Program-made: the position numbers and the translations under genes
Virus record (IMG/VR): IMGVR_UViG_2526164613_000023
Origin: a virus
Taxonomy: Duplodnaviria; Heunggongvirae; Uroviricota; Caudoviricetes
Reading direction: 5' to 3' (one strand)
Length of the DNA stretch: 35,309 bases
Shown here: positions 35,039-35,309 of the stretch, one piece after another
Numbering within the stretch: the first letter of the stretch is position 1
Layout: each line of letters opens with the position of its first letter
Notes under the pieces: model-generated
Database searches by the model: none
What the model was told of the DNA's origin: nothing
The model's input: only the letters and a program-made list of their open reading frames with translations

Positions 35039-35302
35039 ATGGTCGGAGGGAATACCCGAAGGCCAGATGTGGAAAGGCCCCGGAAAACATCTCTGTTTAA
35101 CCGAGGCCCTAACCGCATTACCTTGACAAGTGAAAGGTTAGCGCCTCTCCGGAAAAGGAGCAAGTGCTATGTCGCAAAAATCGCTTACGGCCATCACGTT
35201 CTGCGTGACGGCAATCCTCATCATCTGGATGCTGCACGGTTCACTGTGCGAAATACGGATGAGCTTCTGGGGAGCGGAGTTTGCGGCGTTCTTACAGTGT
35301 AA
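35039..35302 (+). CDS. Overlapping mok-like reading frame (position-based)
   Basis: 87-aa ORF in another frame that spans almost the whole hok-like ORF, as mok does in hok/sok loci; no sequence similarity recalled. Confidence 0.25.
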   Translation: MVGGNTRRPDVERPRKTSLFNRGPNRITLTSERLAPLRKRSKCYVAKIAYGHHVLRDGNPHHLDAARFTVRNTDELLGSGVCGVLTV

Positions 35303-35309
35303 GCAGTAA
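35169..35309 (+). CDS. Hok/Gef-family small membrane toxin (type I toxin-antitoxin)
   Basis: 46-aa ORF with AAGGAG RBS; hydrophobic N-terminus then …SLCEIR…AEFAAFL…, matching the Hok family SLCEIR…EVAAF… core as recalled; stop codon is the last three bases of the window. Confidence 0.55.
   Translation: MSQKSLTAITFCVTAILIIWMLHGSLCEIRMSFWGAEFAAFLQCKQ

Follow-up and report, generated by a model that had tools for sequence, protein, structure and literature searches.

A Hok/Sok-type toxin-antitoxin cassette behind ogr in a P2-like Escherichia coli prophage and the status of its mok-like reading frame

At the right end of the window analyzed here (the whole 35,309-nucleotide stretch of IMG/VR virus record IMGVR_UViG_2526164613_000023), a short open reading frame behind ogr stops exactly where the sequence stops, raising the question of whether this apparent type I toxin gene belongs to the phage or to its host, and whether it is built and controlled like the classical hok/mok/sok systems. 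The frame (35169–35309, + strand) encodes the 46-aa product MSQKSLTAITFCVTAILIIWMLHGSLCEIRMSFWGAEFAAFLQCKQ, and its TAA stop codon is the last triplet of the window. The features read from it in the initial annotation, an SLCEIR core (residues 25–30) and a hydrophobic N-terminal half in a 46-aa frame ending at the window end, are all present as claimed, and the Hok-family assignment held up in the profile search that had been proposed for it, with Pfam PF01848 (HOK_GEF) matching at 29.9 bits (cut-off 22, E 4e-7). PHROG 251 also matches (E 1e-22), the NCBIfam HokA and Hok models match only below their own cut-offs, and no PADLOC model matched Hok. Residues M1, C12, T14, C27, E28, and E37 align with K-12 HokB and HokC and are equivalent to M1, C16, T18, C31, E32, and E41, which are conserved across 1,264 Hok peptides (bioRxiv 10.1101/2025.08.07.668861); in that work, 42 of 45 diverse Hok homologues assayed were toxic. 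RefSeq WP_000078916.1, annotated as a Hok/Gef family protein, is identical to the product, and in 16 of 17 relatives (74–93% DNA identity) the frame keeps a length of 45–46 codons. Agreement of this kind is far beyond chance, and by family the 46-aa product is a genuine Hok/Gef toxin, with toxicity predicted from its sequence, and the locus is an ordinary, already annotated kind of Hok/Sok module, that is, a type I toxin-antitoxin.

The position of the cassette was examined in an extended sequence (L001) from E. coli O55:H7 DEC5B (NZ_CP038389.1), which is 100% identical to the region and in which a window coordinate equals the L001 coordinate plus 30689. The last phage gene ahead of the cassette is the ogr/Delta zinc-finger late activator (34718–34978, + strand; Pfam Ogr_Delta 52.4 bits; RefSeq WP_000488107.1), giving the order ogr then hok that had been described, and PGAP likewise places a “Hok/Gef family protein” directly after the ogr/Delta gene in NZ_CP038389.1. 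At the opposite end, window bases 1–58 are host DNA from the btuC side and are followed by the attL core AAAGAAAAAAGGCCGCAGAGCGGCC (59–83, unstranded), a 25-bp exact repeat of L001 4880–4904. This second copy lies 260–284 bp beyond the window end, coincides with the ihfA terminator, and constitutes attR. In K-12, a single copy of AAAGAAAAAAGGCCGCAGAGCGGCC serves as the ihfA terminator, flanked by the window’s first 58 bases and by ihfA; as both flanks are joined there, K-12 carries the empty attB. The att repeat and this empty site place hok inside the prophage, as its last gene.

The initial annotation had allowed for either a host-encoded gene next to attR or the last cargo gene of the prophage, and it is the second of these that stands. 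A host chromosomal hok merely adjoining attR would fit with hok being the outermost gene and with the window ending there, but the att core is repeated 260 bp further out, ihfA and btuC are joined without hok in K-12, the same locus occurs within phage genome records, and hok follows ogr at four different chromosomal sites. The att repeat and the K-12 empty site rule out host-encoded hok, and the probability left to that reading is negligible. Lying between attL and attR and recurring in phage genomes, the hok/sok cassette is very probably a moron, the cargo gene at the end of a P88-like P2-type prophage in the ihfA terminator, with the window edge cutting through its 3′ UTR. A scan of IMG/VR found 306 contigs encoding a relative of Hok, and among the best 80 of these, which carry the same Hok, about half end exactly at the hok stop codon. 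The shared end of frame and window is thus a product of provirus boundary drawing and not of biology. The window is itself a provirus call, and its right edge at the hok stop omits 284 bp of the prophage, so that the hok mRNA 3′ UTR and attR are cut off; where boundaries are drawn at the last gene call in this manner, the cassette will be under-represented. Outside the window, the Rfam family STnc540 matches L001 4828–4980 (− strand) at 40.9 bits (gathering score 38), a span that takes in the 3′ end of ihfA together with its terminator. It is the phage att core that forms the terminator of the STnc540 sRNA/ihfA transcript, and it is regenerated by integration.

Among named Hok proteins, the closest is K-12 HokA (NCBIfam NF007290), with 43% identity and a common W-M...SLCE...AAFL.CK pattern. 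The score against the HokA equivalog model was 34 bits with a cut-off of 89, so the window Hok is not HokA itself; moreover, the window locus is intact, in contrast to K-12 hokA, which lies directly against IS150 and has a mokA annotated as a pseudogene. With R1 hok/sok and K-12 hokB/sokB and hokC/sokC the locus shares the conserved C, T, and L-C-E toxin positions, a long structured GGGUGC leader, a tac/fbi fold-back, a protective 3′ hairpin, and the place, promoter geometry, and basal hairpin stem of Sok. It differs from HokB, HokC, and R1 Hok (the last in what we take to be its sequence) in having only 24–30% identity and 46 aa instead of 49–52, and from all three loci in having no ATG after GAGG, no conserved mok frame, and a GCCUC box that lies closer to the hok Shine-Dalgarno (SD) sequence. 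The hokW-sokW locus of the Stx prophages Sp5 and 933W (Takada et al. 2021, PMC8621323), the only prophage copy that we found with an experimental study, is likewise a prophage-borne hok/sok and shares with the window locus the PHROG name “MokW-like host killing”. It is nevertheless a different locus; HokW has 51 aa and 28% identity and is accompanied by an annotated in-frame mokW with the canonical GAGG-N7-ATG. Identity with HokA or with HokW is ruled out by the NF007290 score and by the 28% figure, respectively. The nearest phage counterpart is P88 gp52 (NC_026014, Xuanwuvirus, Peduoviridae), which is recorded as “hok/gef family protein” and is one residue (A15V) away from WP_000078916.1, itself the same protein in the same place after ogr. 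The annotations of both WP_000078916.1 and P88 gp52 consist of the CDS alone, with Sok, the mRNA elements, and the status of mok left unannotated.

The RNA around this CDS has the organization of a hok mRNA. A putative hok promoter, placed by reading the sequence, consists of a −35 box TTGCCG (34988–34993), a 17-nt spacer, and a −10 box TAGATT (35011–35016) on the + strand, the −10 box being kept as TAnAnT in 16 of 16 relatives. It would give rise to a 146-nt leader (35023–35168, + strand), delimited by Rfam RF01794, by alignment to hokB and hokC, and by a 16-locus consensus structure. This leader opens with GGGUGCC (tac; 35023–35029), contains GAGG, the equivalent of the mok SD (35103–35106), and ends in the hok SD AAGGAG (35155–35160), all on the + strand, and, starting at GGGTGC, it can be aligned blockwise to the leaders of K-12 hokB and hokC. 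RF01794, which is named “sok” but models the hok-mRNA strand, matches end to end over 35023–35182 (48.4 bits, E 1e-9); the gathering score is 59, and as a result the locus receives no automatic Rfam annotation. The leader is thus homologous to hok mRNAs in both sequence and structure.

The remaining elements of the transcript were read in L001, 9–121 nt past the window end. They comprise a 3′ hairpin (L001 4629–4652), an fbi box AAAGCACCC (L001 4677–4685, or 57–65 nt past the window) that is complementary to the 5′ GGGUGC(C)UUU, and an intrinsic terminator (L001 4705–4741). The fold-back elements and 3′ stem-loop typical of hok mRNAs, which the initial annotation had suggested looking for, are accordingly found in the extended sequence. 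In the minimum free energy (MFE) structure of the 408-nt transcript (−173.8 kcal/mol, z −7.95), nucleotides 1–6 pair with GCACCC, and across 16 loci at 74–93% identity tac/fbi is 98.9% paired. Within the 3′ hairpin, four pairs (21 cells) show compensatory changes among the 16 loci, and neither the 500 shuffles nor any of the slid controls reached the covariation score. The tac/fbi pairing and the SD hairpin described below are nearly invariant in the subfamily and so offer little covariation proof.

On the opposite strand, a Sok RNA of about 60 nt is predicted at 35067–35127 (− strand) as the positional homologue of the annotated sokB and sokC, with both ends predicted. Its layout would be a single-stranded 5′ tail of ~9–17 nt, a GC-rich hairpin (−26.4 kcal/mol, z −4.4), and CCUUUCC, and its basal stem GGGCCUCGG/CCGGGGCCU is common to SokB and SokC. 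The minus-strand search near 35040–35170 that had been proposed yielded a candidate promoter at 35135–35163, with a −35 box TTGCTC (35163 to 35158), a 17-nt spacer, and a −10 box TAACCT (35140 to 35135). The predicted +1 is G 35127, in the same place as the annotated SokB and SokC 5′ ends, and the geometry matches that of K-12 sokB (TTGCCG-17-TAAGAT). A consensus promoter scan returned no sigma-70 site on either strand, the hok and Sok promoters scoring below its threshold at 6–8 of 12, as do the sokB promoters; both were therefore placed by homology. Among 16 relatives the −10 box is TAACCT in 15 and TACCCT in one, and the −35 box is TTGCTC in 11, the other five having TTGTCT, TTGCCT, or TGACTC, the last of which reads as TTGACT at an 18-nt spacer. 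As indels break the alignment of the apical stem, per-sequence folds were used in place of covariation, and these keep the Sok hairpin in 16 of 16 relatives with a hypervariable 5′ tail. A cis-antisense Sok with a promoter of its own is thus present at the level of sequence. The target of the Sok 5′ tail, between GAGGCC and AAGGTTAGCGCC (35108–35134 and the same region in L002–L017), is itself hypervariable, even among loci with identical Hok, a sign that Sok/hok specificity may have diversified between the copies, of which a genome has up to nine.

The part of the initial annotation that fared less well is the proposed mok arrangement. An overlapping frame is indeed present: an 87-codon ORF (35039–35302, + strand) runs in frame +2 relative to hok, with possible starts at ATG 35039, GTG 35069, and TTG 35123, and its 87-aa product had no match in Pfam, NCBIfam, or PHROG. 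The coupling to hok did not stand, with no canonical start and a frame that is not conserved. In hokB, hokC, and hokW, an ATG 7–9 nt after the conserved GAGG opens the annotated mok; a canonical start after GAGG was absent in all 40 distinct leaders examined from the subfamily, although the GAGG itself is retained there. A frame that starts with ATG, GTG, or TTG and extends to hok is missing from 22 of the 84 loci whose Hok is the same or near-identical, and of 16 relatives that have diverged further, 12 have the overlapping frame closed. In most of the 16, including P88 at 93% identity, the +2 frame closes 16–76 nt before the hok ATG, and in the closed relatives no ATG, GTG, TTG, or near-cognate start follows that stop.

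The only conserved start-like element is AUGUG at 35067–35071, with GAAGG upstream, and the stop of the ORF that begins at this AUG varies in position between −101 and +131. Relative to a chance expectation calculated for two frames with no selection and 61/64 per codon, the frame passes the hok ATG in 4 of 16 diverged relatives (25%; chance about 34%) and extends beyond −50 in 11 of 16 (69%; chance about 69%). Downstream, the frame is open only through the synonymous codon TGC for Hok Cys27, which is TGT in most relatives. A flexible Mok equivalent starting from the AUG/GUG at 35067–35071 was considered and rejected given this spread of stops and chance-level reach. In four relatives, the AUG at this site is directly followed by a stop. 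A mini-ORF, GTG-AAA-GGT-TAG, with a conserved TAG at −30, was also rejected, being absent in 3 of 16 relatives and having no SD. Judged from these sequence comparisons, the mok-like ORF looks like a chance feature of this allele. The apparent absence of a conserved mok in the 46-aa subfamily had no prior description that we could find in the searchable literature; the authors of the Hok census left Mok out of their analysis, calling its prediction “not trivial” (bioRxiv).

How such a locus might work can be outlined from the plasmid R1 paradigm, from which the folding, neutralization, and killing steps given here are taken. The hok architecture described for R1 consists of the tac/fbi pairing, Sok, and processing of the 3′ end as far as a protective stem-loop (PMC9841398). 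By analogy, the full-length hok mRNA, folded 5′ to 3′, would be inert, open neither to translation nor to Sok. As its 3′ end is slowly trimmed back to the protective hairpin, fbi would be lost, allowing the leader to refold and expose the Sok target, to which the unstable but constitutively made Sok would pair via its variable 5′ tail, and RNase III would then cut the duplex so that no Hok is made. Should Sok synthesis stop, the stable hok mRNA would be translated and Hok would depolarize or permeabilize the inner membrane. Possible triggers would be prophage loss, shut-off of host transcription by an infecting phage, or prophage induction.

Within this outline, the leader offers a candidate route by which Sok could act on hok itself. 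A local hairpin at 35140–35168 (+ strand), abutting the AUG and identified from pairing across 16 loci, hides the hok SD through the pairs AGCGC (35140–35144)/GUGCU (35164–35168) and CUCC (35147–35150)/GGAG (35157–35160), with 94.4% of cells paired versus 25–53% in slid controls and with one-sided changes only. Pairing in the Sok-target stem (GAGGC/CUAAC with GGUUAG/GCCUC) reaches 95.6% across the 16 loci. AGCGC (35140–35144) takes part in two mutually exclusive conserved helices, pairing either in the Sok-target stem (35103–35113) or with GUGCU; binding of Sok would free AGCGC and thereby lock the hairpin over the SD and AUG. The predicted accessibility of the SD is <=0.02 for the full-length RNA and 0–0.45 (median about 0.06) after trimming, and masking the Sok site gives <=0.02. 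In 12 of the 13 loci for which this was computed, trimming leaves the target of the Sok tail more open than it is in the full-length RNA. These partition-function estimates agree only weakly with a Sok-induced switch. Direct control of hok by Sok, which we infer from the lack of a conserved mok leader ORF in the subfamily, is given even chances. The fuller proposal, in which the 46-aa subfamily is mok-free, Sok represses hok directly by release of AGCGC and/or through RNase III, and the hypervariable Sok tail prevents cross-talk among up to nine copies residing together, is put forward tentatively, at a little less than even chances.

The alternative closest to the textbook is a canonical hok/mok/sok system in which Mok, started from GTG 35069 or TTG 35123, opens the hok SD and is blocked by Sok. 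In this allele no stop interrupts the ORF between the mRNA 5′ end and a point 7 nt short of the hok stop, and GTG 35069 has GAAGG 6 nt upstream, lies under the predicted Sok 3′ end, and begins a frame that reads through hok. R1 requires mok translation up to the hok SD (PMC9841398), and some read-through frame exists in 62 of the 84 near-identical IMG/VR and GTDB loci. Those 62 are, however, mostly one allele, and the comparisons above speak against this reading: the 22 closed loci, the lack of an ATG 7–9 nt after GAGG throughout the subfamily, the wandering stop of the conserved-AUG ORF, the chance-level open-frame rate in diverged relatives, and the dependence of the downstream opening on the Cys27 codon. 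We consider canonical mok coupling unlikely for this locus.

Two further alternatives keep the same cassette and differ from the above in what it does. A stabilization or abortive-infection role is plausible; instead, the cassette could serve lysis or phage release on induction, as does hokW-sokW of Sp5, where mitomycin C lowers SokW and raises HokW and deletion of the locus halves phage release (PMC8621323). Hok genes are also four-fold enriched in prophages (bioRxiv). HokW is only distantly similar (28% identity), though, and belongs to a lambdoid, SOS-inducible phage, no sequence feature links the window locus to induction, and the roles are not mutually exclusive; a lysis function is a somewhat unlikely reading, yet one of appreciable weight. 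That the locus is an inactive relic, like K-12 hokA, hokC, and hokE, is suggested by the disruption of several K-12 chromosomal hok loci, with IS elements abutting hokA and hokC, and by the fbi of this allele, which reads AGCACCC as opposed to GGCACCC in the subfamily. The promoter boxes, tac, the Sok promoter and hairpin, the SD, the 46-codon ORF, the 3′ hairpin, fbi, and the terminator are nevertheless all intact, the fold-back is still the MFE structure, and both the constant ORF length among relatives and the toxicity of most Hok homologues assayed elsewhere argue the same way, making a relic very unlikely.

The distribution of the cassette is broad within E. coli. A 620-nt query spanning both ogr and hok, counted at a coverage of at least 80%, was found in 1,158 of 5,426 complete E. 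coli genomes (about 21%), and the hok locus alone in 1,756 of the 5,426, at up to nine places per genome, with a 98.6% identical copy in EPEC E2348/69; the 46-aa HokA-like subfamily is present in ~31% of complete E. coli genomes. Its carriers are P2-like and lambdoid/Stx prophages, an integrative element, and IncI1 plasmids. Pairs of ogr and hok that are 95–98% identical occur in the P88-type phage records PhiR44_2, Chuche, 500465-2, P88, and Xuanwuvirus P884B11, and the pair is also found in P2-like prophages at serS, by a tRNA-Leu cluster, and at raiA. A scan of GTDB yielded 5 loci only, in Escherichia, in Salmonella, and on two probable contaminant contigs.

CP061270.1 (L013, 217–1303) carries three tandem 46-aa hok cassettes adjoining serS; the record is labelled a 1.2-Mb “plasmid” and is probably a mis-assigned chromosome fragment. 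Downstream of lom, and in addition to the annotated hokW/mokW/sokW near its right end, Stx phage 933W (L016, AF125520.1, about 1013–1371) bears a hok of the 46-aa type at about 80% DNA identity to the window locus. AF125520 and several other Stx phage records leave this 46-aa-type copy without annotation, and some records call it “MokW-like host killing” or “hypothetical protein”.

The Hok protein, its family, and its placement in P88-type phages are already in public annotation, and the enrichment of hok in prophages is already published. The locus is in that respect one more copy of a very common, annotated prophage hok/sok module, and the one mildly novel point about it is that its regulation may be independent of mok. 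For what is the commonest prophage Hok type in E. coli, no selection for mok was seen. If mok independence is true, the textbook mok-coupling model would not be general for the Hok family, and the cassette would provide a simple system for a translation block by an antisense RNA 40–100 nt upstream of the start codon.

Finally, two neighboring genes were noted in the same part of the window. An AT-rich island (about 33150–34650), with a GC content of 0.30–0.39 compared to 0.52–0.58 around it, holds a 355-aa ORF (33449–34516, − strand) located between tail gene D and the ogr gene. This ORF had no match in NCBIfam, PHROG, PADLOC, or PDB and none by tblastn in 50,697 phage records, with a sub-threshold match to Pfam DUF3800, and it is absent at this position in P88 and PhiR44_2. 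It is a rare cargo gene, possibly a defense gene. The gpD-like tail gene (31947–33179, + strand) is a 410-codon ORF in the window, of which RefSeq calls only the last 263 codons, as “VgrG/Pvc8 family”, together with a small pseudogene on the opposite strand; this discrepancy is probably a start-site annotation problem.
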